Shown here: one piece after another, positions 35,464-63,645 of the stretch | How the letters are laid out: each line of letters begins with the position of its first letter | How positions within the stretch are numbered: the first letter of the stretch is position 1 | The notes under the pieces: model-generated | Databases searched by the model: none | Told to the model about the DNA's origin: nothing | The model's input: the letters and a program-made list of their open reading frames with translations, nothing else | Translations under genes and position numbers: made by a program | Assembly: GCA_029547205.1 (NCBI GenBank) | Contig: JAKPPT010000092.1 | Location: 24,626-88,625, forward strand | Length of the DNA: 64,000 nt | Direction: 5' to 3' | Origin: Spirochaetota bacterium | GTDB lineage: Bacteria; Spirochaetota; Spirochaetia; Treponematales; UBA12059

Positions 35464-37398
35464 CTAGTTTTGCTCTAAAAAATGTTCACGGATAAAAGCA
35501 GCATATGCTGGCAACAACATAAGTTCTTCATGTGTACCAAAGCCGACTACCTTTCCTCTATCCAAGAACAGTATTTTGTCTACATACTGCAGCGTAGAGA
35601 GCCGGTGTGATACAATAATAAATGTCAGATTCTGTGCAAACGCATTGAGTTCATTCATGAGACGCTCTTCGTTTGCTGCATCAAGACTCGCTGTAATATC
35701 ATCAAAAACCATAAGCTCTGGTTTCCTGGCTATTGCGCGAGCTATAGCCATCCGCTGTTTTTGTCCACCAGAAAGACTTAAGCCTCGCTGTCCCACAACG
35801 GTAAGTTCTCTATCGGTAAAGTTAGCGACTTCATCGCTCATCTGGGATATACGTAAGGCTTGATTGAATACCGTGTCGTTCGGTTCATCAATAAAAAAAT
35901 CTATATTTTCCTTAAGCGTTCCAGAAAACAAAAGAGCTTCCTGCGGGACATACCCTATTTTTTTTGCATATGTTTCTGTATCGATTGCATCTAGCGGTAC
36001 GCCATTTATTTTTACCATACCTGAATCTGGAGGCAGCAAGCCGAGCAATACTTTAATGAGCGTCGATTTACCTGAGCCTACTGGACCAATAACCCCAAGT
36101 CGTTCACCCTTTGTTACTCTAAAACTTACCCCATCGAGCGCTTTTTCTACACGCCCCGGATAAGTGAACGATACTTCATTAAAATCGATTGTAGCTATAT
36201 CTATTGCTATTGTTTTCTCCTGAGGTGCGATACCTGGCACCGATACTCCGCCCTGCACCTGGATACCTGGCACCGGAACACTGCCCTCTAGCGGTACGTT
36301 GCCCTGCACCTGGATACCTGGCACCGATACGCCGCCCTGCACATGGATACCTGGCACCGGGTCCTTTTCCGAAGCGCTTTTTCCTGGTACCGGAAAGCTC
36401 GCCATCTCTTCCAGCCTATCAATATTTACAAAAGCTTTTTTGCCATATACGAAGAGCTGTGGTATATCCAGAATTGGATAAATGAGCATCATGAGGTATG
36501 TATAGAACGCATAAAACGTTCCGATGCTTATTTTTCCTCTCACCGCCATTAAGCCGCCGGCAAATACAATACCTACTTGAGCAACGAGGTCAATGTACTG
36601 ATAGATAAGGTGCAGAATCACATCGAGTTTTGCTGCAGTCATTTCGGTTTTCCAGCGTTTTTGCAACACCTCATTAAAAAACCTTCGATATTTATCCTCG
36701 CAGGCATACGCTTTGATAATTCGCACACCCGAAAAGCTCATTTCAAGCTGTTCATTGACCTCACTCACAGCTTTTTCGTTTTTCCTGTAAACATCATATA
36801 CCTTATCAGATGTTACCCAGAAGACTGCCAGCATGAGCGGCAAGGGAATGAGCGAAAAAAGCGTCAGCTTTGGACTAATGAGCATCATTGCAATGAGACA
36901 AAACAGCACTTTACTGATTGATTCCACTGCGCGAAAAATTCCTGAACACAAAAACCACGACAGCTTTGGAAAATCATAGAGATCGCTCGTCAGCCGTGTA
37001 ACAATATCACCCGTAGCAAATTCTGAAAAAAACTTATAATTCTTTTCAAGAATTTTCTTAAAAAATTTCATTCGGAGCAAATGTTCAAAAACAGAGTTTG
37101 TCATGCCACGTATTGCAGGAAAAAATGAGGCAATAAAACCACCAAATCCCACTGCAATTAAAAGCATTAAGAGTCTATCTATTTCCAACATCGGGTCGGT
37201 TGTGCCAGGATGCTCCAAAAGCCGTTGGATAGTATCAAGCAACAATTTAGAAATATATGGAAGCAACACCGCCACCGCACTCGAAATTAATGTGAGTACA
37301 AATAATAGTGCTACAAGTCCTTTTTTCTCACTCCAGAGTTTTCTAATCCAGGCAATATGATTAATGTTCAGCTGTTTGTAGTGTATTGTATCTGACAT
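35464..37398 (-). CDS. ABC exporter, fused permease/ATPase (MsbA-type), with repeat-derived linker insert
   Basis: Six-TM domain, then GPVGSGKST, LSGGQKQR and LMVFDD. ATG 37398 is preceded by GGAGGAGGAG. The linker carries VPGIHVQGGVSVPGIQVQG... repeats. Confidence 0.9.
   Translation of the reverse strand: MSDTIHYKQLNINHIAWIRKLWSEKKGLVALLFVLTLISSAVAVLLPYISKLLLDTIQRLLEHPGTTDPMLEIDRLLMLLIAVGFGGFIASFFPAIRGMTNSVFEHLLRMKFFKKILEKNYKFFSEFATGDIVTRLTSDLYDFPKLSWFLCSGIFRAVESISKVLFCLIAMMLISPKLTLFSLIPLPLMLAVFWVTSDKVYDVYRKNEKAVSEVNEQLEMSFSGVRIIKAYACEDKYRRFFNEVLQKRWKTEMTAAKLDVILHLIYQYIDLVAQVGIVFAGGLMAVRGKISIGTFYAFYTYLMMLIYPILDIPQLFVYGKKAFVNIDRLEEMASFPVPGKSASEKDPVPGIHVQGGVSVPGIQVQGNVPLEGSVPVPGIQVQGGVSVPGIAPQEKTIAIDIATIDFNEVSFTYPGRVEKALDGVSFRVTKGERLGVIGPVGSGKSTLIKVLLGLLPPDSGMVKINGVPLDAIDTETYAKKIGYVPQEALLFSGTLKENIDFFIDEPNDTVFNQALRISQMSDEVANFTDRELTVVGQRGLSLSGGQKQRMAIARAIARKPELMVFDDITASLDAANEERLMNELNAFAQNLTFIIVSHRLSTLQYVDKILFLDRGKVVGFGTHEELMLLPAYAAFIREHFLEQN
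36229..36393. repeat. In-CDS copies of GATACCTGGCACC (4 exact, 1 degenerate)
   Basis: Copies start at 36229, 36262, 36313 and 36346. Spacings are 33, 51 and 33 nt, all multiples of 3. Confidence 0.9.
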
Positions 37399-37421
37399 AG
37401 TCTCCTCCTCCCCTATAAAGC

Positions 37422-39215
37422 TCACGTTGCCTCATCAAGTTCTGCATCTGCAGAAAGATCAGGGAATTGCAGACGGACCAGTTCTTCATACTCAGAATAC
37501 TCTGCAAGCAACTCATGATGCTTTCCTCGTGCTGCTATTCTGCCATTTTTGAAAAAAAGAATTTCATCAGCAGTAAGTATTGAAGAAAGCCTGTGCGCCA
37601 CAATGATAGCCGTTCTACCTTTAAGAAGATCTTTCATGCTCCGTTGAATTTTCTTTTCTGTAACTACATCAACACTTGCGGTTGCTTCATCCATAATGAT
37701 AATATCCGCATTAAAAACAACCGCTCGTGCAAATGAAATGAGCTGCTTTTCACCCATCGATAGATTGCCACCTCGTTCTGCAAGTTCAGTGTACGCACCA
37801 TGAGGTAGCCGCCGAACAAAATCATCAGCATGAACCGTTTCCAATGCTTTGAAAACATCGAGTTCGGTAAACTTATCATTATATACGCGTACATTTTCAA
37901 GGACTGTCCCCGGGAATAAATATATATCCTGCAACACAAGTCCAATATGTTTCCGCCATTCATGTAAATCAAGTGATTCCAATCGTACGCCATCAACAAG
38001 AATCTCACCACTCGTATATGGGTAAAACCTGCAGAGGAGGCTTACAGTTGTTGTTTTACCGGAACCAGAAGGACCAACAAGTGCAATGGTCTGTCCCTTT
38101 TTTACAGTAAATGAGACATGATCAAGCACCGGTTCGCCTTCTTTATAAGCAAAGGAAACATCACGGAACTCAATTGCATGCTTAAATTCAGGTTTGTTTG
38201 TAGGCGTTGCCACTGCTTCTTCAGGTTCAAGGCTCATAATCGAAAAAATACGTTCCATTGCAACGCGAGCCTGCTGAATACTCCGTACATTTTCCCCAAT
38301 TGCAAACAAAGGTTCAAACAACCGCATCCCATATTCAATGAAAACCAAGAGTGTCCCTACGGTTAAAACTCCTTTAAAGATTTGCGGCGCTGTTAATTTA
38401 ATGATGAGTGTAAGAAACAGCGGCCCAGCTAAAAATTGCAGCCCGCCCATAAAGATATACTCGATAAGACCAGCCCGAATCTCGATATCACGTTTTTCTT
38501 TACTTACTTTTTCTAGCTTGGAAACAGCCTTCTCTGTTTTTTTAAACACCTGGAGAACTTCTATACCCTGCACAAACTCTGTCACCACAGCACACACTTC
38601 TGCATACTTTTTTCTCGCTTTTTCATAAAGTGGCCTCAATTTATCAAAAACAAGTAAAAATGCAGCGAGTAAAAACGGTATCGGAATAAAAATAATGCCA
38701 GCAAGTTTTGCATCAATAGTAATGAAAACAATAAACATTCCAATAAAATAGATAATATTGGTGATGAGCATGATTGCAGTTTCGCTAAAAAGCTGTTTAA
38801 CCCGCTCAGTATCATTTTCCACACGAGCCATAAGCTCGCCAACCTGATGCTTATCAAAATATGCAACAGGTAGAGTAACCATGTGTGCAAACAGATCTGA
38901 TTTTATATTTGTCACAACATTTAGTCCCAGACGAACCATAAGCATGCTTTCGAAGTATGTGATAACACCCATAAAAATCACGAGAGCAAAATAGAGAAAC
39001 GCATACTGCAGCATGAGACTAACATCTTTTTGTGGAATAGCCTTATCGATAATTGCCCGGAGAATGAGCGGACCTGCCAGTCTAGAAGCAGTCACCGCCA
39101 GGAGTGCTAGCAAACCCAGAGCAAACAGAAACCAATACGGCTTGAAATATGAAAAAAATCGCTTGAACACCAGCCTCTTGCTGATATTTGTGTTTTGAAC
39201 TTGTGCTTCTGACAT
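37422..39215 (-). CDS. ABC exporter, fused permease/ATPase (MsbA-type)
   Basis: GPSGSGKTT, LSMGEKQL and IIIMDEATA. I prefer ATG 39215 (MSEAQVQNT, preceded by GGAGA). The track's N-terminal 59 aa are read through repeat DNA. Confidence 0.85.
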   Translation of the reverse strand: MSEAQVQNTNISKRLVFKRFFSYFKPYWFLFALGLLALLAVTASRLAGPLILRAIIDKAIPQKDVSLMLQYAFLYFALVIFMGVITYFESMLMVRLGLNVVTNIKSDLFAHMVTLPVAYFDKHQVGELMARVENDTERVKQLFSETAIMLITNIIYFIGMFIVFITIDAKLAGIIFIPIPFLLAAFLLVFDKLRPLYEKARKKYAEVCAVVTEFVQGIEVLQVFKKTEKAVSKLEKVSKEKRDIEIRAGLIEYIFMGGLQFLAGPLFLTLIIKLTAPQIFKGVLTVGTLLVFIEYGMRLFEPLFAIGENVRSIQQARVAMERIFSIMSLEPEEAVATPTNKPEFKHAIEFRDVSFAYKEGEPVLDHVSFTVKKGQTIALVGPSGSGKTTTVSLLCRFYPYTSGEILVDGVRLESLDLHEWRKHIGLVLQDIYLFPGTVLENVRVYNDKFTELDVFKALETVHADDFVRRLPHGAYTELAERGGNLSMGEKQLISFARAVVFNADIIIMDEATASVDVVTEKKIQRSMKDLLKGRTAIIVAHRLSSILTADEILFFKNGRIAARGKHHELLAEYSEYEELVRLQFPDLSADAELDEAT

Positions 39216-39392
39216 ATCTTGTCTCCAAACCTGCATACGATGCGGCACAATGCGGTAATCGGCATATCTTGTCTCCAAACCTGCATACGATGCGGCACAA
39301 TGCGGTAATCGGTACCAGGTATCCAATGCATGCTGTAATTCTGTACCAGGTATTGTGCAGTACCAGGTGCCAGGTTTTCTTAAATCTAGCAT
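39213..39392. repeat. 50-bp tandem duplication (x2) followed by four degenerate core-motif copies
   Basis: Unit catatcttgtctccaaacctgcatacgatgcggcacaatgcggtaatcgg at 39213-39262 and 39263-39312. It is followed by GGTACCAGGTATC, TGTACCAGGTATT and AGTACCAGGTGCCAGGTTTTC. Confidence 0.85.
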
Positions 39393-42631: not shown

Positions 42632-44086
42632 ATGAATAACGATCAGCAACAAAACATTTCTACTCCAAGTCAAACTATACTCAAACACAACAAATTCTGG
42701 CTTACAGTAGAAGGCGCTGCATCATCTGTATATCTCATTTTAACACAGGGTGCTCTTTTTACTGCTATTGCGATCTATTTCAAACTTACGACATTCTGGC
42801 TTTCTGTTACCACTGCATTTCCACTTGTGTTCCAGGTATTCCAGCTTATTGCTCCAACCATTATTAAACGGTCAAAAAACAGAGTAAGGCTGATGATTAT
42901 TTTCAATGCTGGCCGATTCATCTGGTTTATTCCGCTTGCAACTTCGCTCTTTGGCTTTTCATCTGCCTTAGAATTCATTGTGATTTTTGCAGTGAGCCAG
43001 CTCGCAAACGCTCTTGCTGGCAATGTGTGGGTGGGATTAAGCCGGGACCTCATTCCAGAACACGAACGCGGAAAATTTCTTGGGAGAAGAAATGTTGCAA
43101 TCAGCATTACCACAATGATTTCGACATATATCTATACTGCTATTCTCGATATACTCAGCAAACCTTTATCCATCATTATAACTATACTCATTGGCATGAT
43201 TGCTACAATCATTTCAATCATTGCCACGTTCCCAATTCGAGATATCAGTCTCCAGGAAATCAGCCAACAAAGCACAGGAAACCTGGCACCAGGAACAACA
43301 TTCGAAGAAAAATCGGCTGGAAACCTGGCACCAGGAACAAATAAACAAAAAACAGATTCTATAAAATCAAACTTGGTTTATTTATTTAGCTACAACAAGC
43401 AGTTGCTCCAGGATAGCAACATCAAACGATTTGTAATTGCAATGTTCGCGTGGAACTTTATTCTTCAACTAACTGCTCCGTTTTTTGCATATCACCAGAT
43501 CACCAATCTTTCTATGTCGATGCGATTGATCGGAATTACTTCCATCCTTACGAGTCTTCTTTCCATAATTTTTTACAGGATTTGGGGTGTTTTAGGTGAT
43601 AAACTTGGCCATAAATCAGTATTGGTGACAGGTATCAATATCGTTAGCCTTATCCCTATGCTATGGTTCTTTATGGGAAAACCGCTTTGGCCATACATGA
43701 TGGGTGTTGATGTACTCTTAACCGGACTTGGATGGTCAGCTATCGATCTTGGCATTTTAACCTTTGGAATGGAAATCGGTGGTAAAAACTCCAGTGCATG
43801 CTTTGCTCTCGCTAATGCAGGAGCGGGCATCAGCGGACTCGCTGGAGCTGTAGTAGGAGGCTTCCTGGGACAAAAACTTAAGCCAATAAACCTGACACTC
43901 TGGTCTTTCGAAATCAATGGTCTTCAATTTTTATTTCTTGTTGGTGGACTTTTACGGTTTTTAGGTCTTGCTCTCTTCAAAAAAGTACAGGCAGCTAACT
44001 ATGCAAAACCAGGTGTCATGGTTACGAATGTGCTTTCAATTATTGCACGACGCTTTGCAATCCGTCCCGCTGAACTTGATGAGTAA
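42632..44086 (+). CDS. MFS transporter with repeat-derived central-loop insert
   Basis: 484 aa with multiple TM helices. The central loop contains GNLAPGT twice. Confidence 0.7.
   Translation: MNNDQQQNISTPSQTILKHNKFWLTVEGAASSVYLILTQGALFTAIAIYFKLTTFWLSVTTAFPLVFQVFQLIAPTIIKRSKNRVRLMIIFNAGRFIWFIPLATSLFGFSSALEFIVIFAVSQLANALAGNVWVGLSRDLIPEHERGKFLGRRNVAISITTMISTYIYTAILDILSKPLSIIITILIGMIATIISIIATFPIRDISLQEISQQSTGNLAPGTTFEEKSAGNLAPGTNKQKTDSIKSNLVYLFSYNKQLLQDSNIKRFVIAMFAWNFILQLTAPFFAYHQITNLSMSMRLIGITSILTSLLSIIFYRIWGVLGDKLGHKSVLVTGINIVSLIPMLWFFMGKPLWPYMMGVDVLLTGLGWSAIDLGILTFGMEIGGKNSSACFALANAGAGISGLAGAVVGGFLGQKLKPINLTLWSFEINGLQFLFLVGGLLRFLGLALFKKVQAANYAKPGVMVTNVLSIIARRFAIRPAELDE
43277..43340. repeat. 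Two in-CDS copies of GGAAACCTGGCACCAGGAACAA
   Basis: Identical 22-mers at 43277 and 43319, 42 nt apart. They contain the perfect palindrome CCTGGCACCAGG. Confidence 0.9.
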
Positions 44087-44230: not shown

Positions 44231-45193
44231 ATGTCAGATATACAAAACACTCATGCAGAAGACGAAATTTCTCTCATTGATCTTATAGCAGTAATGCTTA
44301 AATACCGATGGCTTATTATCGGGCTAACCTGTGCAAGTATAGTTATCACCACATTAGCATATTTCATTCTTCCAGCACTAAAAACAAGCGAGATATCAAC
44401 GAACAATGCAACTGCAGCAGTTTTGTCACCTTATGAAACAGTAACAACGCTATCATTCACACCAGGTATTGAATTATTAGTTCAATATAGTAATCTTCAC
44501 TATTTTACTATAACTACATTATCAAATCCTCTTACAATTGACACAGCACTCACTGCAGCGCATTTAGACTTTGGTTTTCTCAGCCGTTCTCCTGATGAAA
44601 GGCTTGCAACAATACGGCAAGAACTAAAAAAGACAAAACCTGCTGATGCGGTAAATTCCTGGAGCGCAGAATTGACCTTTAAAGATTACAAAGCGACCGT
44701 ATTAAATGGCATAATTACACTTACTATAAAAAGCCCTGATAAGGAGAAAAATGAAAAGTTCATCGATGCAACTATTCGTTCCTTAAACGAAACTCTTAAA
44801 CAATATCTTATAGCGCCAGCAAGCGCACTATTAACGCAAGGAATTAGCACAAACCAGAAAAATTCTTTTGCAGAACTCGATGCAGCAAAGCTGAATCAAC
44901 AGCGTTCTTTAGCAAATGCTATAGTTAACCGTTCATTTAATCCAGTTGTCAAACTCATGAGCTATACGCTTCAGGAGCAAAAGGATATACAACAGGAAAT
45001 ACAACAGGAAATACAACAGAAAATACAGATAAAAAATCAAATAAAAAAATATGGTACAATTGGTACTATTGGTATGTTATTTTTAAGTATCATGCTTGCA
45101 TTTATTCTGCAATGGATAAATTCTATAAAAAATGACCCAGAAGCTATGCAAAAAATTACAGCAGCTCTAGGGAAAAATAAAACACAGAAATGA
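44231..45193 (+). CDS. Wzz-like polysaccharide chain-length determinant
   Basis: N-terminal EDEISLIDLIAVMLKYRWLII TM helix, a periplasmic coiled coil, and a C-terminal TM helix. Internal QQEIQQEIQQKIQ repeat. Confidence 0.6.
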   Translation: MSDIQNTHAEDEISLIDLIAVMLKYRWLIIGLTCASIVITTLAYFILPALKTSEISTNNATAAVLSPYETVTTLSFTPGIELLVQYSNLHYFTITTLSNPLTIDTALTAAHLDFGFLSRSPDERLATIRQELKKTKPADAVNSWSAELTFKDYKATVLNGIITLTIKSPDKEKNEKFIDATIRSLNETLKQYLIAPASALLTQGISTNQKNSFAELDAAKLNQQRSLANAIVNRSFNPVVKLMSYTLQEQKDIQQEIQQEIQQKIQIKNQIKKYGTIGTIGMLFLSIMLAFILQWINSIKNDPEAMQKITAALGKNKTQK

Positions 45194-47026: not shown

Positions 47027-48715
47027 CTAAACATCAAGCTTTTTAAGCCGCTTTTCAGCAAATGGCATAAACACAATCAGCATCACTACGGAAAGAAAAA
47101 TTGGTATAATAGCTGTAAAAACAAATAACTCTGTTATAGTTTTAATATATGTAATACTAAAATAACCAACAACTCCCAGTATCACCATTTCTGCAAGAAT
47201 TACAATGACTGCATTGATATTTTGCTTCATTGCTGCAACTGGAGTTTCCCACTTTAATCGCGGATTAATTGTATCTACAATAAGACCTGCGATATTGAGC
47301 ATAACCGCAATAGAAAAACCTATTACCATAGCAAGCAAGAGTTCACTCACTCGCATCTTAAATAAAAAAACACCCAGGAGCACACTCATCGCTATACCTA
47401 AAAATCCAAAAATACACCCATGAATGAGCTTGGCTGCTAAATATGCTTTTCCGCTTATGGGAAGACTCTTCATAAATGAAAGCTGTTTTGCATCACGAGA
47501 TATCGATGTGCAGGTAATACTCGTCGCGGAACCTAAAAAAGCACCAATGAGACTCACCAGCACTACTCTGATTATTGGTGTTATTGATGAAACAAGTTCG
47601 GTTATTTCTTGTGCAGAACTCTTATTGTTTGACAAATTAAAATAAAAACTGATTCCTAAAATAAGTGGCATAAGAATAATGATAAAAGGACCATTTAAGA
47701 AGTAAACAGGTTCCCTATTCATGAGCCGTATTTCTCTCAATACCAGCGATACAATTTTTGGATTTTGTTGAGTTTCTTTTCCCAACAGAATCTTTGCCTG
47801 CTTTTTATCAAGCTTCTTAATATAGTTTTCAGAAAAATTCCGTACCACATATCGATAGAGCGGTGCCATGAGTTCAAAAATCAAATACACCAGACCAAGT
47901 ATCGCTATCAGTAAAGCTGTTAGTGCAATCACGTAGATTGGCTTTTGTGGTTCTAAAAGTGTTGCTAAAATGAATTGGAATACAGGATTTTTATTATATA
48001 GCTGCAAAAATCCCTGATTACTGCCCTCAAGTAGCTTCATGAGAGCTTCTGGTGACGAAGCCATAGCCATGATTCTATTTGTTGTAGCATTGAAAAACAG
48101 CATAAAACCTATTGCTATAAGGCCTACAAGAATCATGACCATATCACGGTTTCTAAAAAACTTGCTAATCGATAACAACGGCAGGCCAATGATATAACCC
48201 AATGCGGTTGCAACAACAGTAATAATAAGGATAAGCAGCACCGCATTGATCAAAAACATAACCGATGAGTGTTCAAAATACCAATAGATACCAAGGCCAC
48301 TCCCTATGATGAGCAGTGCCAATCCGAATTGAGCAAAAGCAATTGTACTTGCTTTTGCAGAAAGGATATAGGAAGTTCGTAGGGGTAACGTTGTGATATA
48401 TATTTCCATATCATTCGAATAAATAGTGGAAATAGCTGTCAAAACACAAAGAATCGTAATAGCTACTGCTCCATACAGCAGTGCATACATGATGAGTAGC
48501 TTTTGAATACCAACTGATGCAAAGAGACTATACATTGAGTAATAAACTTCCCAGGCCAAAAAACCAAACGATGCTAAAACATACAAAACTAAAAACAAAA
48601 TGCCCAATAGTTTTGCAATACTCTTGAAGCTTATCTTATCATTGTTGTCTTTAATTTCTGGTAGCGCATAAAAACTTTTGAAATAGAATCGTATTGTAGA
48701 AAATATTTTTTTCAT
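47027..48715 (-). CDS. ABC-2-type exporter permease (multi-TM)
   Basis: 562 aa with more than 10 predicted TM helices. 4-nt overlap with the ATPase gene. Confidence 0.65.
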   Translation of the reverse strand: MKKIFSTIRFYFKSFYALPEIKDNNDKISFKSIAKLLGILFLVLYVLASFGFLAWEVYYSMYSLFASVGIQKLLIMYALLYGAVAITILCVLTAISTIYSNDMEIYITTLPLRTSYILSAKASTIAFAQFGLALLIIGSGLGIYWYFEHSSVMFLINAVLLILIITVVATALGYIIGLPLLSISKFFRNRDMVMILVGLIAIGFMLFFNATTNRIMAMASSPEALMKLLEGSNQGFLQLYNKNPVFQFILATLLEPQKPIYVIALTALLIAILGLVYLIFELMAPLYRYVVRNFSENYIKKLDKKQAKILLGKETQQNPKIVSLVLREIRLMNREPVYFLNGPFIIILMPLILGISFYFNLSNNKSSAQEITELVSSITPIIRVVLVSLIGAFLGSATSITCTSISRDAKQLSFMKSLPISGKAYLAAKLIHGCIFGFLGIAMSVLLGVFLFKMRVSELLLAMVIGFSIAVMLNIAGLIVDTINPRLKWETPVAAMKQNINAVIVILAEMVILGVVGYFSITYIKTITELFVFTAIIPIFLSVVMLIVFMPFAEKRLKKLDV

Positions 48716-49452
48716 GAAACCTGCTCCTTATCATCCACAAGTTCCAAAAATAGATTTTCAAGTGACGTATCTTTTCCTTTAAGTTCACGAAGCTCATCAA
48801 GCGAACCGGTGAATAGTATCTTCCCCTTATTGATAATAGCAAGCTTATCGCATACCCGCTCTGCAACCTCCATTACATGCGTCGAAAAGAAAACACACTT
48901 ACCGGCATTAGCACGTTCCCGCATGAGCTCTTTGAGCTTAAATGCCGCATGCGGATCAAGCCCAACCATCGGTTCATCGAGAAGCCAATTTTGCGGATCT
49001 GGAAGCAAACTTCCCGCAATAATAAGCTTTTGCTTCATACCGCGAGAATAACTTGCTATTTTAGCATTGAGCACATCTGCAATTTCGAATATCGTCGTGT
49101 ACCGTTCTATCGCAGCATACCTGGCACCTTTGCCTAAATCATAAACATCTGCGATAAAATTGAGATATTCAATACCTTTTAACCGGCTAAACAACTCAGG
49201 ATTATCTGGTACAAACCCTATAGCATGTTTCGCCTTCAAATCATCGGAGATGGTAGAATGACCATTGACAAGAACCGTACCCTCATCCGCTTGCAGCGAG
49301 CCGGTTATTAATTTAAGCGTTGTTGTTTTTCCAGCTCCATTTGGCCCCAAAAAACCAAAAATACAGCCATCAGGTACTGTAAGGCTAATAGCATCAAGCG
49401 CTTTTGTTTTTGCTCGGTTATACGTCTTGCTCACCGCATTAATCTCAATCAT
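48712..49452 (-). CDS. ABC transporter ATP-binding protein
   Basis: GPNGAGKTT, YSRGMKQKL and WLLDEP. Confidence 0.9.
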   Translation of the reverse strand: MIEINAVSKTYNRAKTKALDAISLTVPDGCIFGFLGPNGAGKTTTLKLITGSLQADEGTVLVNGHSTISDDLKAKHAIGFVPDNPELFSRLKGIEYLNFIADVYDLGKGARYAAIERYTTIFEIADVLNAKIASYSRGMKQKLIIAGSLLPDPQNWLLDEPMVGLDPHAAFKLKELMRERANAGKCVFFSTHVMEVAERVCDKLAIINKGKILFTGSLDELRELKGKDTSLENLFLELVDDKEQVS

Positions 49453-49476: not shown

Positions 49477-49727
49477 GAAACCTGGCACCGCAATCTATCG
49501 ATACCTGGCACTGCAAAGTTCAAATCAGTCCAAAGGGAACCCTGACACCGCTTGCACAGCCAGAACGCGCCCGCTGACTGAAACATGGGGAAACCTGGCA
49601 CCGCAGACACTTTCCGCAGGCACTTTAGGAAACCAAGGGCTCGCTTTTGATACCTGGCACCTAACTGGCTAATGGCTCATGGCTTGTTATACCTGGCACC
49701 TAACTGGCTACTGGCTCATGGCTTGTT
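49477..49727. repeat. Intergenic repeat cluster A (~6 copies, CCTGGCACC orientation)
   Basis: GAAACCTGGCACCGC appears twice and GATACCTGGCACTGC once. A 39-bp unit, ATACCTGGCACCTAACTGGCTA(A/C)TGGCTCATGGCTTGTT, appears twice. Confidence 0.9.
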
Positions 49728-50339: not shown

Positions 50340-50696
50340 CTATTGTTTGAACAAATTATTAAAAATTGAGCTGAGATCTTCTGGATTTATTCCACCTGGC
50401 AATCCTGCAGCATTGGCAGGAATAATATCTTTCATTGCTTCTTTTAATTTAGCCTGAGCGTCATTATATGCTGCTTTAAACAAGTCTTGAACAATAACAA
50501 CATCTCCTGAAGCAAAAATCTCTGGTGACAGGTATACATTTGTTATTTGCATAGCACCATTGAGCGTTACAGATGCCATATTCCCCCCAGCAGTTCCTGT
50601 CACACTCACCTTAGCTAATCGCTCCTGAGTTTCTTTGACTTGCTGTTGTAAAAGCGCTGGATTGCTAAGCATCTTAAAAAGATCCGATATTTCCAT
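50340..50696 (-). CDS. ybaB: Nucleoid-associated protein YbaB/EbfC
   Basis: 118 aa, positioned between dnaX and recR. The sequence style fits the family. Confidence 0.8.
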   Translation of the reverse strand: MEISDLFKMLSNPALLQQQVKETQERLAKVSVTGTAGGNMASVTLNGAMQITNVYLSPEIFASGDVVIVQDLFKAAYNDAQAKLKEAMKDIIPANAAGLPGGINPEDLSSIFNNLFKQ

Positions 50697-50700
50697 ATTG

Positions 50701-52563
50701 TTATTCCTCCGTCAATCGAGTTCCCCTGAATACCTTTTCAACTATTTGCGCAGGACTTTCAGTTGTACCAGAATCTTCTATCTCATGAGATTCTTGACTA
50801 TGCTCGGTTGAATTTTGCACAACATATGCATGTATTTGAATAACTCGATTAAACACTTTTTGTAAAATAGGATTGATTACCGAACTTTCTGCATTAATTT
50901 TATCTGCCTCAAAATTTGAAACACAGGATACTTCTAACCTGTCACCCTTTATCGACCAATCTTCTGTTCTGGAAAGAATCGCATTAAGCATCAAATTTTG
51001 CTTACCCAGTGCAGTAATTACCCTCTCCTTTTCAGCTATTGCAGTATCAGTAGCAGAATCTGACTGTTCAGAAATATAACCACTGGAATCTACACTTTTG
51101 CCGCGAGAAACCGCGATTGAAACTGCGCCGATGCCTGGTTTAACTGCACTGGTGCCAGGTTTCCCATCACCGATGCCAGGTTTAGTTGCGCTAGCAGTGC
51201 TAACTGTACTGGTACCAGGTTTTGAATCGACTGCTGATGCACCTCGGCTACTACCCACCATGTTGGCCTCGCTGGCCAGTTCAACGGTGCCAGGTTTAGT
51301 TGCGCTGGAAACTGCGCTGGTGCCAGGTTTCCCATCAGGTTTATTTGATTTATCCACTGAAGAAGCTTGAGAACTCAATGAGATTAGTTTTTCTGCAATT
51401 CCACTTGCGTTTTGAGTATTCCCTTCACTAAGAGCATGTTTCAAATTGGTTAAGATTTCAAAAATCTCAGAACGTGAAATAAGCGCTCGTATTTCACAGA
51501 GCATTACCAATGCAAGTTCTATTTCATATCGGGGGTTAACGCTGTACCGCATGTTTCTATAGATATCAAGAAGCACAGCAAGCATCCGTTCCAGGTGTCG
51601 TGTTTCGAGCGCTGACACTTGTTCCGGCACTGATTCTTTTGAAAACCCTAAAAGTTCCTGTTTCTCGACACCAGCTTTTATAAAAAGGAGCGTACGAACA
51701 TATTGAATAGTATCAACTAAGAGCTGCTCAATTGAAACACCTGAAGATACAATTGATTCAACAAGTTCGATTGTTTTAGCCTTATCTCCTTGTGCTACCG
51801 TGCTTATCAGCATACCAATTCGTTCAGAACCGACAATACCTAGTTTATCCTGAATTACCGACAGCCTGATATGTCCCTCAGAAAATGAAGCCACTTGATC
51901 AAACATGGTATACGCATCGCGGAGAGAACCAGTTGCCTCTCGCGCTATCCACATGAGCGCATCATCATCAGCCACAATACCTAAATCCTGCGCTGCCGAT
52001 GCAAGCCTTTCCTTAATAACAGCAAGCGGAATCAATCTAAAAACAAATTGCTGACACCGGCTGCGGATGGTAGCTGGTACCTTATGCAGTTCAGTCGTTG
52101 CAAATATAAAAACAATATATGGCGGAGGTTCTTCGATAGTTTTCAACAGTGCATTAAAGGCACTGTTAGAGAGCATGTGTACTTCATCAATAATGTAGAT
52201 TTTATATTTAGAGAAGTTAGGCGGGAAAAGCACCTCATCTTTAATTTGACGTACATTATCAACTGACGTGTTGGACGCACCATCAATTTCAATAACATCC
52301 AATGACGCACCTTTGGTGATAGCATGACACGAATTGCATACCCCGCATGGTTCTGCGGTTGGCCCTCGTTCACAATTGAGAGATTTTGCAAGTATTCGTG
52401 CTGTACTTGTTTTACCGCAACCTCGAGGACCAGAGAAAAGATATGCATGCGCTATCCTTCCCGATTCTATTGAAGCCTTGAGCGTAATCGAAACAAAATC
52501 CTGTCCCGCCAGCTCATCAAAATTCTGAGGCCGCTTGCGGTTTGCTGTCACTTCATACGCCAT
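50701..52563 (-). CDS. dnaX: DNA polymerase III subunit gamma/tau, with repeat-derived insert
   Basis: GPRGCGKTS, zinc module CERGPTAEPCGVCNSC, and DEVHML. The variable region carries KPGT repeats. Confidence 0.93.
   Translation of the reverse strand: MAYEVTANRKRPQNFDELAGQDFVSITLKASIESGRIAHAYLFSGPRGCGKTSTARILAKSLNCERGPTAEPCGVCNSCHAITKGASLDVIEIDGASNTSVDNVRQIKDEVLFPPNFSKYKIYIIDEVHMLSNSAFNALLKTIEEPPPYIVFIFATTELHKVPATIRSRCQQFVFRLIPLAVIKERLASAAQDLGIVADDDALMWIAREATGSLRDAYTMFDQVASFSEGHIRLSVIQDKLGIVGSERIGMLISTVAQGDKAKTIELVESIVSSGVSIEQLLVDTIQYVRTLLFIKAGVEKQELLGFSKESVPEQVSALETRHLERMLAVLLDIYRNMRYSVNPRYEIELALVMLCEIRALISRSEIFEILTNLKHALSEGNTQNASGIAEKLISLSSQASSVDKSNKPDGKPGTSAVSSATKPGTVELASEANMVGSSRGASAVDSKPGTSTVSTASATKPGIGDGKPGTSAVKPGIGAVSIAVSRGKSVDSSGYISEQSDSATDTAIAEKERVITALGKQNLMLNAILSRTEDWSIKGDRLEVSCVSNFEADKINAESSVINPILQKVFNRVIQIHAYVVQNSTEHSQESHEIEDSGTTESPAQIVEKVFRGTRLTEE
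51130..51331. repeat. Six in-CDS motif copies inside dnaX
   Basis: GATGCCTGGTTTA 51130, GGTGCCAGGTTTC 51151, GATGCCAGGTTTA 51172, GGTACCAGGTTTT 51211, GGTGCCAGGTTTA 51286, GGTGCCAGGTTTC 51319. Confidence 0.9.
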
Positions 52564-52579
52564 GCGTTTAGCATATCAT

Positions 52580-53070
52580 GGTGCCAGGTTTATAGTAAAC
52601 TAGGCAACAGGTTATTGTTATTTTTGTTTTTTTGGTACCAGGTATCAGATTTTGTTTGCTGCGCCAAGCCATTGGCGAAAACCTTCGGTGCCAGGAAAAC
52701 CTTCGGTGCCAGGTATCTAATAGCTGAATGTTTCATGAAAACCATTGGTGCCAGGTAATACATGGCCAAGTCTTTGAGAAGATTTTAGGTGTCAAGTTTC
52801 CCTAGCATATAGGTTTATGATAACATTTTCCCAGCATGCAAATGCACATGGCCAAGTATGCGGTGCCAGGTTTCTGATAGTTAAGTATACGGTGCCAGGT
52901 TTCTGATAGCTACCAGGTTTCTGATAGCTATAGCTAAGTATAGCTAAGTATGCGGTGCCAGGTTTCTGATAGCTAAAATATTGGATTTATGACACGTTTT
53001 ATTGACTACACGTAATCCGACAAGCAGTCCGGTGCCAGGTATCTCTAGATACGGTGCCAGGTATCTCTAG
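52580..53070. repeat. Intergenic repeat cluster B (~12 copies, GGTGCCAGG orientation)
   Basis: Begins 17 nt upstream of the dnaX ATG. Includes local tandems such as CGGTGCCAGGTTTCTGATAGCTA and CGGTGCCAGGTATCTCTAGATA (x2). Confidence 0.9.
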
Positions 53071-53159
53071 ATATAACCTCTATCTATGTAGCAATAATAT
53101 GGCAATACGAGAAGAACAGACAATTAAACGGGGAAAATTACAAATTAGCTATTAACCGT

Positions 53160-53292
53160 GTGGGTTCCTGCAACCATAAGGTCAGGCTTGGCATGGCACA
53201 AGATCATTCTGCTTACCGTTGCTTCCTTCCGGACCTGGCGGGGTTAGGCAGCGAACCTTTGCATGGAGCCTGACCATATTGTTGCAGGAAAA
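53160..53292 (-). ncRNA. ffs: Signal recognition particle RNA (small/4.5S type)
   Basis: The minus strand reads ...CCAGGUCCGGAAGGAAGCAACGGUAAGCAG..., matching the conserved domain IV core. The flanking arms UUCCUGCAAC..GGUCAGGCU and AGCCUGACC..GUUGCAGGAA pair into one long hairpin. Classic position upstream of dnaX. Confidence 0.8.
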
Positions 53293-54307: not shown

Positions 54308-54469
54308 GAAACCTGACACCATAAATCCAGAAACCTGACACCATAATTTTTTAAGTTCTAGTTTTGGTGGCAGGTTTCTAATTTTCTACAAGAAGTGCGC
54401 TTATTGGTGCTTGTGAAGCATTTAGCTGTGATTCGTACCATGTTTCCATGTTTCTCGGTGCCAGGTTTC
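54308..54469. repeat. Repeat cluster C upstream of RAYT (2 copies in each orientation)
   Basis: GAAACCTGACACC at 54308 and 54330. GGTGGCAGGTTTC at 54366 and GGTGCCAGGTTTC at 54457. Confidence 0.85.
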
Positions 54470-57797: not shown

Positions 57798-59221
57798 AAT
57801 TAGCAACTCACTAGCGCCTCGCAGAAACCAAAACCTGGCACCTTTCTCCCCATTCTCTCAGATCCAACGAAACATGGCACCCTTTGGCCCTCCGCAACCG
57901 GGGACCCTTTATTGAGAAACCTGACACCGTTCTCCCCATTCTCTCAGACCCAACGAAACATGGCACCGTTCTCGCAGACCTCGCCGAAGAGCTGCGCCTA
58001 TCAAACCGAAACCTGGCACCATTCCCGCAAACCTAAAACCTGGAACCTGGAAACCTGGCACCGATCTCGCAGTTCTCAAAACCTGGAAACCTGGCACCGT
58101 TCTCGCAAACCTAAAACCTGGAACCTGGAAACCTGGCACCGATCTCGCAGTCCTCGCCGAAGAGCTGCGCCCATCAAACCGAAACCTGGCACCGTTCTCG
58201 CAGACCTCGCCTGGAAACCTGGCACCTTTCTCCCCATTCTCTCAGACCCAACGAAACCTGACACCTTTCTCGCAGTCCTCGCCGATTAAGAGCCGCGCCC
58301 ATCAAACCGAAACCTGAGGAAACCAACCTGGAAACCTGGCGCCCTTTATTGGGAAACCTGGCACCGTTCTCGTAGTCCCGATTCGAAACCTGGCACCCTT
58401 TGGCCCTCTGCAAATTAGCAACTCACTAGCGCCTCGCAGAAACCAAAACCTGGAAACCTGGAACCAAATGAAACATGGAAAGCAACCTGGAACCCGGAAA
58501 CCTGGAAACCAACCTGGAACCCGGAAACCTGGCACCAAATACTTTGAGACGCCCACCGCAACATGGGACCCCTTATTGAGAAACCTGGCACCTTTCTCCC
58601 CGTTCTCTCAGACCCAACGAAACCTGGCACCCTTTGGCCCTCTGCAACCTGGGACCCGGAAACCTGGAAACCTGGCGCCCTTTATTGGGAAACCTGGCAC
58701 CGTTCTCGTAGTCCCGATTCGAAACCTGGCACCATTCCCGCAGACATCGCCGATTAAGAGCTGCGCCCATCAAACCGAAACCTGGCACCCTTTGGCCCTC
58801 CGCAACCTGGCGCCCTTTATTGAGAAACCTGGCACCGTTCTCGCAGACATCGCCGATTAAGAGCTGCGCCTATCAAACCGAAACCTGACACCATGGCACT
58901 TGATTTCTTTCAAACCGAAACCTGGCACCGTTCTCGCAGTCCCGATTCGAAAACCTGGCACCGTTCTCGCAGTCCCGATTCGAAAACCTGGCACCGTTCT
59001 CGCAGTCCTCGCCGAAGAGCTGCACCCATCAAACCGAAACATGGAACCTGGCACCCTTTGGCCCTCCGCAACCTGGGACCCCTTATTGAGAAACCTGGCA
59101 CCGTTCTCGCAGTCCCGATTCGAAACCTGACACCATGGCACTTGATTTCTTTCAAACCGAAACCTGGCACCACGGCACTTCAGGCACTTATTTCTTAAGG
59201 CACCATGGCACTTGATTTCTT
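57798..59221. repeat. ~1.4 kb single-orientation array of GAAACCTGGCACC modules (about 30-35 copies by hand count)
   Basis: Every module starts with the core and carries one of about four tail types. Includes a 33-bp tandem (x3) at ~58915-59013. A higher-order repeat, AAATTAGCAACTCACTAGCGCCTCGCAGAAACCAAAACCTGG, occurs at 57798 and 58413. Confidence 0.95.
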
Positions 59222-61162: not shown

Positions 61163-61580
61163 GGTGCCAGGTTTCAAAATAGCCATTTGGTGCCAGGTTT
61201 CGTTCCAAGTGCAGATATAGAGAAAAACCGGTGCCAGGTATCGCTATAAATCCCAAAGTCTGTGACAAGCAAGAAGGCCGGTGCCAGGTTTCCCATTTGT
61301 GTCATTTGGAGGTGCCAGGTATCCCCACTGGTACCCTACAGCTTCAACAAAAGTTAGCAATGGAGCGATTGGTGCCAGGTATCCCCACTGGTACCCCACA
61401 GCTTCAACAAAAGTTAGCAATGGAGCGATTGGTGCCAGGTATCAGTATGGGATTGGTGCCAGGTATCGCTATACCAGGTTTCCCATTTGTGTCATTTGGA
61501 GGTGCCAGGTATCCCCACTGGTGCCCCACAGCTTCAACAAAAGTTAGCAATGGAGCGATTGGTGCCAGGTATCAGTATGG
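61163..61580. repeat. Intergenic repeat cluster F (~11 copies, GGTGCCAGG orientation) with 60-bp tandem units
   Basis: The 60-bp unit GGTGCCAGGTATCCCCACTGGTACCC(T/C)ACAGCTTCAACAAAAGTTAGCAATGGAGCGATT occurs at 61311, 61371 and 61501. Confidence 0.92.
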
Positions 61581-61625: not shown

Positions 61626-62798
61626 ATGAAATTTGCCTCAAGAATATTGCACCCTGCGGTATATATTTGCTGGTTTCTGGTTTTAGTTTTCTCAGCTTGC
61701 AAACAAGCAGAAACCACCACAAAACCTCCGAATCCTCATGAATCGGTCAAATTTTCTGTGACACTATCAAAAACAGAACCTGAAATTGTCTATTTTGATG
61801 CAGACAGGCCACTCAACGAAGCTTTTTCTCTTACGAAACCTGGCACCAAAGCGTTATTACCTTATCCACTCCAAAAGCGGCCTGCGCTTTTTGTTCCGTT
61901 GGACAAATCCTCAATACTTCTCTTAGTTAACAAAGTAGGCTTTGTTCAACTCACTTTTACAGCAAACGCAGATGTATCTACAACGATACAATTTGATTCT
62001 CCAGTCTCTGTTGAAGGTGTACCAGTAAACCAGTACTCTGCAGGTTCAGTTTGGCAAACGAATAATCACCAATATCTACTATTGTATAAAGATCATGTAC
62101 TCGACACTGACTGGGCAGCAACAGTTTTATTTGAATTTTCTGGTGACACTGTCTCACGGATAGAAATCCCACCACATCCTGAAAATAAACGCTATGAACC
62201 GTACTGGATTTTCCCAACAAGCGAAAACACCTGGCTTATCCAATATCGTTACATAATTGGAGACCGATCGTATACAACATATGCTTCATGGGACCGTAAA
62301 CACAATAAACTTTCGGAGCTCACACGCACCTCTTTTGAACGCCAACTCACTCCAATCACCTTTGAAAAAGCTCCTGCACCCATTCGTCTCATAGCTGAAC
62401 ATATATCAGAACCCGTTCTATTAGAGTACCGTGATAGCAATGGAGCCATTCATTATATCAATAACAAAAATCTCGATGATGCTGTTCTTGGCATCGCAGA
62501 AACCAACAATTACGGCACTTTTGTCCTTCTGGAAGATGGCCGATACTGGATCGCTCGGGGACAGGTACCACCATCAGTTTCTTCATCTGAAAATCAAACA
62601 ATCACTCCGAAACAACAGCAATCAGCAATATCCTTTTCAGGAACACCACCAGTGACTATAGGGCAGGCTACTGTACCTGTTGATGATGTTCATTTTAGAA
62701 ATGCAATATTGACTGATACCGTGTTTATCAGCACCTGGGAAGAAAATGGTTTTCCAGAGACGGGAATGAGCGGTCTCTTTCTTTTTCAGCTTCCGTAA
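61626..62798 (+). CDS. Hypothetical lipoprotein
   Basis: 390 aa with a lipobox-like LVFSAC. Contains one exact motif copy at 61835-61847, read as KPGT. Confidence 0.55.
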   Translation: MKFASRILHPAVYICWFLVLVFSACKQAETTTKPPNPHESVKFSVTLSKTEPEIVYFDADRPLNEAFSLTKPGTKALLPYPLQKRPALFVPLDKSSILLLVNKVGFVQLTFTANADVSTTIQFDSPVSVEGVPVNQYSAGSVWQTNNHQYLLLYKDHVLDTDWAATVLFEFSGDTVSRIEIPPHPENKRYEPYWIFPTSENTWLIQYRYIIGDRSYTTYASWDRKHNKLSELTRTSFERQLTPITFEKAPAPIRLIAEHISEPVLLEYRDSNGAIHYINNKNLDDAVLGIAETNNYGTFVLLEDGRYWIARGQVPPSVSSSENQTITPKQQQSAISFSGTPPVTIGQATVPVDDVHFRNAILTDTVFISTWEENGFPETGMSGLFLFQLP

Positions 62799-62868: not shown

Positions 62869-63645
62869 ATGAAATATCGGTGCCAGGTATCAAAAAAGGT
62901 TTTCCGTTTATCAAAACATGCAATCAAAAAATATTTGTGCATCCTTGCTATTTTTTTAACATCGTATTCCGTTTTTGCCTTTGATATTACTCATGCAGGC
63001 GGATCACTCGGTGTGCTCATCATCAATAATACGGTTCCCGAATCAGCACCGAACCCGGTTGTAAATACCATTGGTGGATTTGCCAATTTTACATTTACTT
63101 CGGTGCCAGGTTTCGCCCCTGGTTCTTCGGTGCCAGGTTTCGCCCCTGGTTTTTTCCTCTCAACAGCTCTCGACATACTCTGGCTCAATTATGAAAACCG
63201 AGACGGTATTGCTGTGCCTACAGAAACAGAAACTGGTAACGGCAATAACGTTTTTGTTATCGGTTTACTGCTCGATGTACCGTTAGGATATGTATTTTAT
63301 TTTGGACCGCCTGTTACCGAATCATTACCGCATCGATTTTCAGCTACCTTACTTGCAGGCACATCTTTTTTATTTCGTATCTGCATGAATGGTGATACAA
63401 CCGAAGCTTATGCAAGCGTGATGGAACAAAACCGCATTGCTGTTGCCCAGTACCTCTGGGGGAATGGTAGGTGGTTTTATCCAATGATAAGCGGGAAATT
63501 CGGTATTGTGCTTCAAGAAACGTTTACATTCACAGTAGGCGCAAAGTGGTACATCCCCATATTCAATCTTTGGACAACCGATGATAATTCATTTTTCAAT
63601 GCAAGTATGCTGGCAATTCAGCTTGCAATGCAAATTTCCCTGTAA
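62869..63645 (+). CDS. Hypothetical exported/OM protein with repeat-derived segments
   Basis: 258 aa with a hydrophobic N-terminus. Motif copies at codons 3-8 (YRCQVS) and in SVPGFAPGSSVPGFAPG. Confidence 0.5.
   Translation: MKYRCQVSKKVFRLSKHAIKKYLCILAIFLTSYSVFAFDITHAGGSLGVLIINNTVPESAPNPVVNTIGGFANFTFTSVPGFAPGSSVPGFAPGFFLSTALDILWLNYENRDGIAVPTETETGNGNNVFVIGLLLDVPLGYVFYFGPPVTESLPHRFSATLLAGTSFLFRICMNGDTTEAYASVMEQNRIAVAQYLWGNGRWFYPMISGKFGIVLQETFTFTVGAKWYIPIFNLWTTDDNSFFNASMLAIQLAMQISL
63099..63149. repeat. Two in-CDS copies of TTCGGTGCCAGGTTTCGCCCCTGG
   Basis: Copies at 63099-63122 and 63126-63149, 27 nt apart. Their 22-mer core is identical to the intergenic copy at 55894-55915. Confidence 0.9.

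Follow-up and report, generated by a model that had tools for sequence, protein, structure and literature searches.

The dnaX gene of a Spirochaetota bacterium, coding for the gamma/tau subunit of DNA polymerase III and located in a 64,000-nt stretch of contig JAKPPT010000092.1 (the whole stretch is called the window below), carries six in-frame copies of a short DNA word that recurs, mostly in intergenic spacers, throughout the same chromosomal neighborhood. We consider it probable that the resulting KPGT-rich stretch in DnaX is an extension into coding sequence of a repeat family proliferating locally around a gene for a RAYT-type tyrosine transposase, its copies having been seeded into the gene and filtered by selection, with the transposase possibly driving the process.

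Repeat copies in the dnaX linker

The dnaX open reading frame (ORF; Table 1) is found in the common gene arrangement tRNA-Ser, signal recognition particle (SRP) RNA, dnaX, ybaB, recR. Its product contains the N-terminal AAA+ clamp-loader module (domains I-III), on which Pfam, NCBIfam PRK06647 and AlphaFold2 agree, with the Pfam domains DNA_pol3_delta2, DNAX_ATPase_lid and DNA_pol3_gamma3 covering aa 21-368 and the last of them occupying aa 236-368. A first-pass annotation, made from the letters of the sequence, had reported six cores in about 200 nt of the dnaX ORF, sharing the KPGT frame and situated in a variable region after domain III, and these claims were borne out. The 12-mer AAACCTGGCACC is present at 51130-51330 in six copies, three of them exact, two with one mismatch and one with two, all on the sense strand and in codon phase 0, yielding KPGT four times and KPGI twice; the peptide string quoted in that annotation is the true translation, DNA_pol3_gamma3 ends at aa 368, and the linker length ranges from 72 to 169 aa among six lineages. 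Under the codon usage of the window, the probability of KPGT being spelled AAACCTGGCACC is about 0.0096, yet three of the four KPGT copies are spelled in exactly this way and the fourth is off by a single synonymous base, and it is this near-invariant codon spelling that identifies the match as one at the DNA level rather than at the peptide level.

The six cores are arranged as three two-core blocks and so go back to a single founder event, or a few, followed by local duplication in frame, and not to six insertions. Super-unit alignment resolves the segment into three copies of GAT-GGG-[core]-AGY-GCA-GTT-(spacer)-ACT-[core]-G, with two cores in each, and TRF detects a 21-nt period repeated three times at 51121-51184; block duplications of the same style are seen in the intergenic arrays. 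The earlier statement that the element writes new peptide sequence into a housekeeping protein is supported, a selfish or structural DNA motif being seen to add residues to DnaX and to remove them, with block duplication in place of six separate insertions. The copy-number change in dnaX is recent: a 613-aa allele (P0211), present in three JGI samples (L091, L092 and L093), lacks the 21-nt unit listed in Table 1, and over 17.5 kb aligned to the window by megablast at 99.7% identity no other indel reaches 3 nt except in the large array described below. Linker size changes in multiples of three, as blocks bounded by cores are duplicated or deleted. A protein identical to the window DnaX comes from metagenome-assembled genomes labelled Spirochaetales or Spirochaetia bacterium, and the repeat segment is not an assembly artefact, as independent assemblies in NCBI, JGI, ENA and Logan data contain the same protein or one 99% identical to it.

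AlphaFold2, run with 73 homologues, models DnaX mostly at pLDDT 80-97 up to about residue 400, as coil at pLDDT 33-45 between aa 402 and 502, and as a compact C-terminal domain at pLDDT >90 between aa 503 and 581. The repeat-derived residues (approximately 408-480) are wholly inside the low-confidence coil. With its variable linker and folded C-terminal domain, the conserved block of which aligns in the 73 homologues, the protein passes as tau-type. A modelled coil with pLDDT <50 between confident domains supports the earlier suggestion that the segment is probably tolerated as a flexible linker, and the KPGT peptide most likely serves as no more than a neutral, flexible spacer that separates the clamp-loader core from the tau C-terminal domain. 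The possibility, raised in the first-pass annotation, that gamma/tau frameshift signals are affected was also followed up: dnaX contains no run of six or more A or T and no A-AAA-AAG slippery heptamer, i.e. no gamma-type frameshift signal of the kind known from E. coli and Thermus. Programmed frameshifting or slippage producing gamma is not universal in the DnaX family.

The dnaX loci of relatives were found via protein searches and exact look-ups; a genome-collection scan with DnaX returned no close relative among the matches listed. The nearest other DnaX lineages (P0002-P0006) are 75, 75, 72, 63 and 64% identical to the window protein, and all others are at about 50%. At the protein level the sequences to the left and right of the linker align solidly, whereas the linker itself does not, and in a blastn comparison with locus L081, the dnaX of which codes for one of the 75%-identical proteins, everything in the gene aligns except 51077-51385, which is the linker; the remaining unalignable parts of the 24-kb synteny between the window and L081 are core arrays or 100-N scaffold gaps in L081. 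Measured from IAEK to LGKQNL, the linker is 130 aa long in the window, 90 aa in L081, 88 aa in L084, 72 aa in L085, 169 aa in L088 and 110 aa in L089. Each of these relatives has its own version, or dialect, of the word in the linker: L081 has AAACCTGTCACC, AAACCTATCACA and ATACCTGTCACC (KPVT, KPIT and IPVT), L084 has two copies of ATACCTGGCACC (IPGT), L085 a single CTACCTGTCACC (LPVT), L088 the word AAACCTGGTACC both in sense (KPGT) and in antisense (SVPGL) orientation, and L089 three antisense copies of ACACC[T/C]GGTAC[C/T], read as VPGV (SVPGV). The relatives' dialects also occur outside dnaX in the same lineages, and in L089 both the linker word and its orientation match the array in its own SRP-dnaX spacer (CGTACCAGGTGTTTTT). 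That spacer (L089 560-1190; 64% DnaX identity) is filled by two T-rich words, GTACCAGCTGTTTTTT and CGTACCAGGTGTTTTTTT, which shows fast divergence of the repeat word.

Beyond these close lineages, two or more such tetrapeptides after domain III were not found, with 114 of the 120 best DnaX homologues having none or one, and 80 other dnaX loci, totaling about 1.1 Mb and including those of other spirochaetes, contain one core altogether. The first-pass annotation had named an ancestral KPGT segment in taxa lacking the repeat as the finding that would speak against it; no such segment was seen in the orthologue comparison, and the tetrapeptides occur only where the repeat is also present outside dnaX. 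As the copies are in sense orientation in some lineages and in antisense orientation in others, there were at least two independent acquisitions of linker copies, and, since relatives already have one to three copies in the same linker, the process is one of ongoing turnover rather than a single recent insertion.

Table 1. Positions of the repeat copies, arrays and genes of the window that are discussed in the text.
Feature	Position	Strand	Evidence
dnaX ORF (DNA polymerase III gamma/tau), 620 aa	50701..52563	-	ORF list; NCBIfam PRK06647 643 bits vs cutoff 623; Pfam domains I-III aa 21-368
Repeat-derived KPGT/KPGI segment, three copies of a two-core super-unit	51121..51337	-	Direct-repeat families D1-D3, TRF, codon view, super-unit alignment
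Core copy 1, AAACCTGGCACC = K412-P-G-T	51319..51330	-
Core copy 2, AAACCTGGCACC = K423-P-G-T	51286..51297	-
Core copy 3, AAACCTGGTACC = K448-P-G-T	51211..51222	-
Core copy 4, AAACCTGGCATC = K461-P-G-I	51172..51183	-
Core copy 5, AAACCTGGCACC = K468-P-G-T	51151..51162	-
Core copy 6, AAACCAGGCATC (2 mismatches) = K475-P-G-I	51130..51141	-
21-nt unit (IGDGKPG) between two cores, missing from the 613-aa allele P0211	51153..51173	-	P0211 vs P0001 protein alignment; megablast L091-L093
Predicted disordered tau linker, aa 402-502, between domain III and C-terminal domain	51058..51360	-	AlphaFold2; blastn vs L081
Intergenic array, 9 cores, SRP RNA gene to dnaX; 18-, 22- and 29-nt tandem units	52580..53064	-
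RAYT-type Y1 (HUH) tyrosine transposase gene, 180 aa	53631..54173	-	Pfam Y1_Tnp, NCBIfam NF047646, PDB match 4ER8
Sole inverted core pair, 18-nt arms, 89% complementary, 15-nt loop, ~160 nt upstream of RAYT start	54329..54379	.
Intergenic array, 5 cores, recR to ABC ATPase gene	49478..49700	+
Non-coding mosaic array, 1.3 kb, ~36 cores, downstream of MCP gene	57831..59171	+
Intergenic array, 10 cores, 60-nt unit	61163..61572	-
Four antisense cores = V-P-G-I in ABC exporter 35464..37425(-), linker between transmembrane and ATPase domains	36230..36358	+	Codon view, Pfam
Two sense cores, +2 phase, N-L-A-P-G, in central loop of MFS transporter 42632..44086(+)	43279..43332	+
Antisense core = G-A-R-Y in ABC ATPase 48712..49452(-)	49117..49128	+
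Core = KPGT in ORF 61626..62798	61836..61847	+
Two antisense cores (SVPGFAPG x2) in ORF 62869..63645(+)	63102..63140	-

The repeat word, its local cloud and the RAYT gene

Position counts over all copies define the conserved unit as exactly 13 nt, G-A-[A/T]-ACCTGGCACC (G-A-[A/T]-A-C-C-T-G-G-C-A-C-C), with neither flank conserved and without a stop codon in any frame. Allowing up to one mismatch, an 11-mer occurs 82 times in the window, five of them in the 1.9-kb dnaX, against a mean of 1.08 and a maximum of 4 in 100 shuffles, and the 12-mer A[AT]ACCTGGCACC occurs 86 times, with 63 copies in the ~14% of the window outside long ORFs. The consensus core GAWACCTGGCACC is non-palindromic, and therefore not a classical REP (repetitive extragenic palindrome), and neither the consensus nor its complement has GTAG or CGTC. 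The arrays are one-orientation runs of the core with variable spacers of 15-115 nt; orientation varies between arrays and bears no fixed relation to transcription, and the local duplication units in intergenic regions measure 18, 22, 27, 29, 33, 39, 60 or 78 nt. An inverted-repeat search of six arrays yielded one core pair only and no hairpin partner for the rest. An Rfam gathering search retrieved the SRP RNA and tRNA and nothing at the arrays, and a literature search with the core as a string gave unrelated primer matches only. A sigma-54 promoter was considered and rejected: the core has a -24-like CTGGCAC, but no -12 element or downstream position is conserved, and the L081 dialect is without the GG. 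A gene for a sigma-54 enhancer-binding response regulator is situated about 3 kb past the right end of the window (L094 13791-15176), and was treated as coincidence.

To either side of the window the scan was extended by 10 kb (L096 11585-21584 and L094 10778-20777), giving 84 kb of contiguous chromosome. Sixty-two of the 64 exact cores in it are confined to the region between 36.2 and 63.2 kb, while the first 35 kb of the window contain two and the 10 kb past either window end none; the core-poor stretches outside this cloud also have several intergenic spacers of 200-600 nt. Within these 84 kb, the element is not dispersed but forms a 27-kb local cloud around the RAYT gene. The large array, that downstream of the MCP gene, consists of cores each trailed by one of four or five recurrent spacer types, such as GTTCTCGCAGTCCCGATTC, CTTTGGCCCTCCGCAA and TTTCTCCCCATTCTCTCAGACCCAAC; the number of its 78-nt units varies between strains, and the equivalent spacer in L081 is ~500 nt long. 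A metagenome scan with the RAYT protein found matches from the same organism only (L090), and these showed the strain difference in the large array.

The RAYT gene is inside the cloud, and dnaX starts 1.1 kb downstream of it. Its product matches Pfam Y1_Tnp (PF01797; E=4e-16) and NF047646 REP_Tyr_transpos (87 bits vs cutoff 80), and it has a single sequence match in the PDB, E. coli TnpA-REP (4ER8), to which both the HUH motif and the catalytic tyrosine (Y-x3-NPV) align; a homologue search gave one close match and otherwise proteins of no more than 42% identity. The 300 nt upstream of the gene contain four cores, including the inverted pair, and the first cores on the downstream side are ~570 nt off, past the tRNA-Ser and SRP RNA genes. 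The inverted pair is identical in strain L091, and a weaker pair is found at the equivalent place in L081. There is one RAYT copy in the window and a syntenic orthologue in L081 (8676-9218; 75% DnaX identity), which aligns in tblastn over 176 residues at 80% identity, with an internal stop splitting it into 101 and 72 aa; it may be a pseudogene or reflect a sequencing error. L085, which is without RAYT in its 11 kb, combines the lowest core density with the shortest linker and one linker copy, although this is a single observation.

The 13-mer repeats break short-read assemblies. The 100-N gaps of L081 (3444-3543, 12723-12822 and 18026-18125) correspond in position to core arrays of the window, and an incomplete DnaX record (P0210) ends exactly at a KPG copy. 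Such repeats also make dnaX, a gene that sometimes serves as a marker, look more divergent than it is.

Copies in other proteins and in-place dialect differences

Well-supported coding copies of the word use mainly the three frames with Pro-Gly; the Trp-His and Cys-Gln-Val frames are seen only in doubtful N-terminal extensions, and the Gly-Ala-Arg frame is used only twice, at a conserved site of the ABC ATPase and in a short ORF. The ABC exporter 35464..37425 has a fifth, degenerate core in the same linker as the four listed in Table 1. Its Pfam transmembrane domain spans aa 39-317 and its ATPase domain aa 430-579, it shows a 43-aa gap against a paralogue, and its ATPase domain begins 55-70 aa later than in solved bacterial exporters; support for the insertion comes from these Pfam coordinates, the paralogue comparison and PDB alignments. 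In the MFS transporter, the L081 orthologue (81% identical) has an antisense copy (SAVPGF) in the same central loop, and must have gained it independently, because the copies in the window are in sense orientation. The two cores in ORF 62869..63645 form a perfect 27-nt in-frame duplication, which is single in L081. Two further sites, in ybaB (50524-50535, VYLSPE) and in the MFS gene (43624-43635, LVTGIN), spell ATACCTGTCACC in all lineages including the window, the ybaB site reading ACCTGGCACC in L088 and L089; these look like chance look-alikes and not repeat copies.

Three orthologous sites, all with conserved flanks, retain the word, while the dialect base follows the dialect of each genome. 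The core 17 nt upstream of the dnaX ATG (52580..52591, minus strand) has a position common to four lineages, and reads G in the window and T in L081 (9973-10000), L084 (254-281) and L085 (4062-4089). Residues 71-74 of ORF61626 are KPGT in the window vs ATACCTGTCACC, or IPVT, in L081 (2349-2360), and residues 109-112 of the ABC ATPase are GARY vs GGTGACAGGTAT, or GDRY, in L081 (13202-13213) and L085 (7131-7142). At three other orthologous sites, two in ORF62869 and the YLSPE site in ybaB, no dialect switch is seen. With sequences ~15-20% diverged, chance is unlikely to alter the dialect position and nothing else, by a rough estimate at <1% per site. The in-place switches hint that copies undergo gene conversion, or that a co-evolving binding protein exerts selection on the DNA word.

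Between the upstream core and the dnaX ATG there is a box, ATG[A/C]TATGCTA (window 52564-52579), which is kept in six lineages, with no Shine-Dalgarno-like sequence evident by eye. It may be a promoter -10 element from which an mRNA with a short leader, or with none, is transcribed; the box was not among the calls of the consensus promoter scan, and counts of sigma-70 promoters and terminators in 50600-53200 were no higher than in shuffles.

Explanations, known systems and further repeats

In the explanation that we favor, the process that seeds the intergenic arrays would also place founder copies at coding sites where they are tolerated; purifying selection would keep only those frames that supply small or flexible residues (K/I-P-G/V-T, N-L-A-P-G, V-P-G-x), and only at disordered linkers or loops; and arrays would expand and contract via slippage or recombination between direct cores. 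More speculatively, RAYT might nick and join single-stranded DNA at or near the core, thereby seeding nearby copies, and might catalyse gain and loss of inter-core blocks, with the motif co-evolving with the enzyme. Several points weigh against this. Each step of the spreading mechanism is a proposal, and the neutrality of the KPGT peptide is an assumption. The core forms no hairpin and >95% of its copies are without an inverted partner, while known RAYTs and IS200/IS605 transposases recognise hairpins. The link to RAYT consists of co-location in two lineages, in one of which, L081, the gene has an internal stop; the part of the genome inspected is 84 kb, and other clouds without RAYT may exist elsewhere. 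The linker is unalignable, so that independent gain and ancestral copies with later homogenisation are fully separable only where orientation differs (L088 and L089 vs the rest). Finally, the three in-place dialect differences are unlike what simple insertion and slippage would predict.

These differences are what would be expected if the 13-mer represented a new RAYT-associated repeat class, non-palindromic, with a range of tens of kb, kept dialect-matched by active conversion through HUH-nuclease cleavage and joining that also rewrites the copies in ORFs. Such conversion, which is possible although doubtful, would explain the KPGT/IPVT and GARY/GDRY sites and the fact that the DnaX linker tracks the local dialect, and would amount to enzyme-driven local editing of coding sequence. 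We regard it as unlikely that the word is instead a binding site for a protein with lineage-specific specificity, be it a domesticated RAYT or a nucleoid, partition or regulatory factor, with arrays selected for site number and the dnaX copies kept for a role at the DNA level, such as occupancy across the dnaX-ybaB-recR operon, the peptide being a by-product. The conservation of the word at orthologous positions with the dialect base alone switching (dnaX 5' untranslated region, ORF61626, ABC ATPase), the fixed distance from the core to the dnaX start in four lineages, the nearly invariant codon spelling, and the local rather than dispersed distribution of copies all agree with a binding site. 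However, strains that are 99.7% identical differ in the number of copies, both in dnaX and in the arrays, orientation and spacing (15-115 nt) are irregular, the two ORF62869 sites and ybaB YLSPE do not switch dialect, relatives keep a functional linker with one to three or with antisense copies, and no candidate binding protein was found.

The remaining alternatives fare worse. In E. coli, the tau region after domain III contacts the replicative helicase, and KPGT could in principle be under selection as a peptide, serving tau as a functional linear motif that binds a partner or is modified, with the intergenic likeness secondary or with the intergenic copies derived from dnaX. The single frame common to all six copies would fit such a motif; in-frame block duplication, however, yields a shared frame automatically. 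Synonymous positions are near-fixed, as for recent DNA copies, the same DNA word is read as NLAPG, VPGI/F and GARY in other proteins, relatives use KPVT, IPGT, LPVT or antisense SVPGV, 114 of the 120 listed homologues have none or one of these tetrapeptides, and one strain is without one unit, all of which makes a selected motif highly improbable. Still harder to credit is the view that the segment arose by ordinary low-complexity slippage of a disordered linker and has nothing to do with the intergenic repeat, or that repeat-rich reads were wrongly assembled into dnaX: disordered linkers do commonly evolve by slippage, and assemblies do break here, at the KPG copy in P0210 and at the arrays that correspond to the L081 100-N gaps, but the dnaX copies share exact 12-mer identity with at least 60 intergenic copies vs about one expected, dialects match in six lineages, and the same ORF was assembled independently in several sources with its conserved flanks intact. 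DNA uptake sequences are, as far as is known, spread along the whole chromosome, whereas here 62 of 64 exact cores are packed into 27 kb, with none in the 10 kb past the window ends and two in the first 35 kb, and the copies are clustered in tandem arrays with local units, mostly intergenic, and missing from most of the 84 kb. It is therefore very unlikely that the 13-mer is an uptake-type signal (like DUS or USS) that accumulates by biased uptake and recombination and is tolerated in permissive coding frames and places, even though uptake sequences are likewise non-palindromic words of 10-13 nt with lineage-specific single-base dialects (PMC3630211), the dialect switches in place at orthologous sites, and coding copies are limited to permissive frames and weakly conserved segments, as described for uptake sequences (PMC2817400).

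Local proliferation with selective filtering of coding copies, as favored above, has relatives among known systems. Ogata et al. (2000) reportedly described Rickettsia palindromic elements (RPE) that sit in frame within protein-coding genes. That extragenic repeats can insert in frame is established, and a survey of intragenic REPs (PMC3733652) found many inserts in replication and repair genes (uvrA, uvrB, dnaE, dnaE2), with dnaX not named as a host in its main text. As in those systems, a short, mostly extragenic family is here also found in ORFs with the frame intact, adding 7-80 residues at tolerated sites, often as dimers or clusters, and a RAYT-type tyrosine transposase gene is associated with the repeats; likewise, as with RPE, the 13-mer copies keep the frame at structurally tolerated sites of conserved proteins (DnaX, ABC exporter, MFS transporter). 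In contrast, REP and RPE are 20-150-nt palindromes with a GTAG or CGTC tag (PMC3733652), the RPE families measuring 100-150 nt, whereas the present unit is a 13-nt non-palindromic word without either tag; and REP arrays alternate, whereas ours are direct and belong to what is, at least in the 84 kb inspected, a local cloud.

The setting also resembles that of REP/REPIN-RAYT systems (PMC2817692, PMC3116915, PMC5581495), in which the RAYT gene has an abundant repeat on its flanks (PMC5581495): here a gene for a Y1 transposase of the RAYT class, single in the 64-kb window and syntenic in L081, is flanked by the locally commonest short word and adjoined by an inverted word pair, and the repeat sequence varies among related lineages. 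However, the REP/REPIN unit is a 20-40-nt imperfect palindrome or hairpin, usually organized in REPIN doublets, while the direct, tandem-like arrays seen here are neither hairpins nor doublets. REP/REPIN repeats are also in high copy and dispersed genome-wide; the 86 copies seen here in 64 kb are confined to 27 kb of the 84 kb inspected. The repeats of Borgs (PMC9879509) are similar in being fast-evolving direct tandem repeats between and within genes, with in-ORF units divisible by three (here 21, 27 and 33 nt) that create or extend disordered segments; as understood, Borg arrays arise independently of each other, whereas here one 13-nt core is common to all arrays, on a bacterial chromosome and beside a RAYT gene. 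In-frame repeat insertion as such is a known phenomenon; what sets the present case apart is a non-palindromic unit of 13 nt, arrays that are direct, a local cloud around RAYT and dialect differences in place.

The locus offers an unusually clean multi-lineage view of non-coding repeat DNA turning into protein sequence, as one and the same word is found in spacers and, in three reading frames, in linkers or loops of five proteins, among them DnaX, an ABC exporter and an MFS transporter, with strain-level gain or loss of a 7-residue unit in an essential replication protein. Selection would then filter repeats by frame and structural context, rather than barring them from essential genes. If the link to RAYT is real, it would widen the presumed targets of RAYT-type enzymes and provide a compact 27-kb test system.

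Two other tandem repeats were found in the window. A perfect 50-nt duplication (39213-39312) is located near the annotated start of another ABC exporter, 37422..39392, beside three core-like words; the annotated N-terminus of this protein (MLDLRKPGTWYCTIPGT...) is probably upstream of the true start. ORF 44231..45193 contains at 44978-45049 an in-frame 12-nt tandem repeat, CAACAGGAAATA, in 4.2 copies followed by a degenerate continuation, which is unrelated to the 13-mer.

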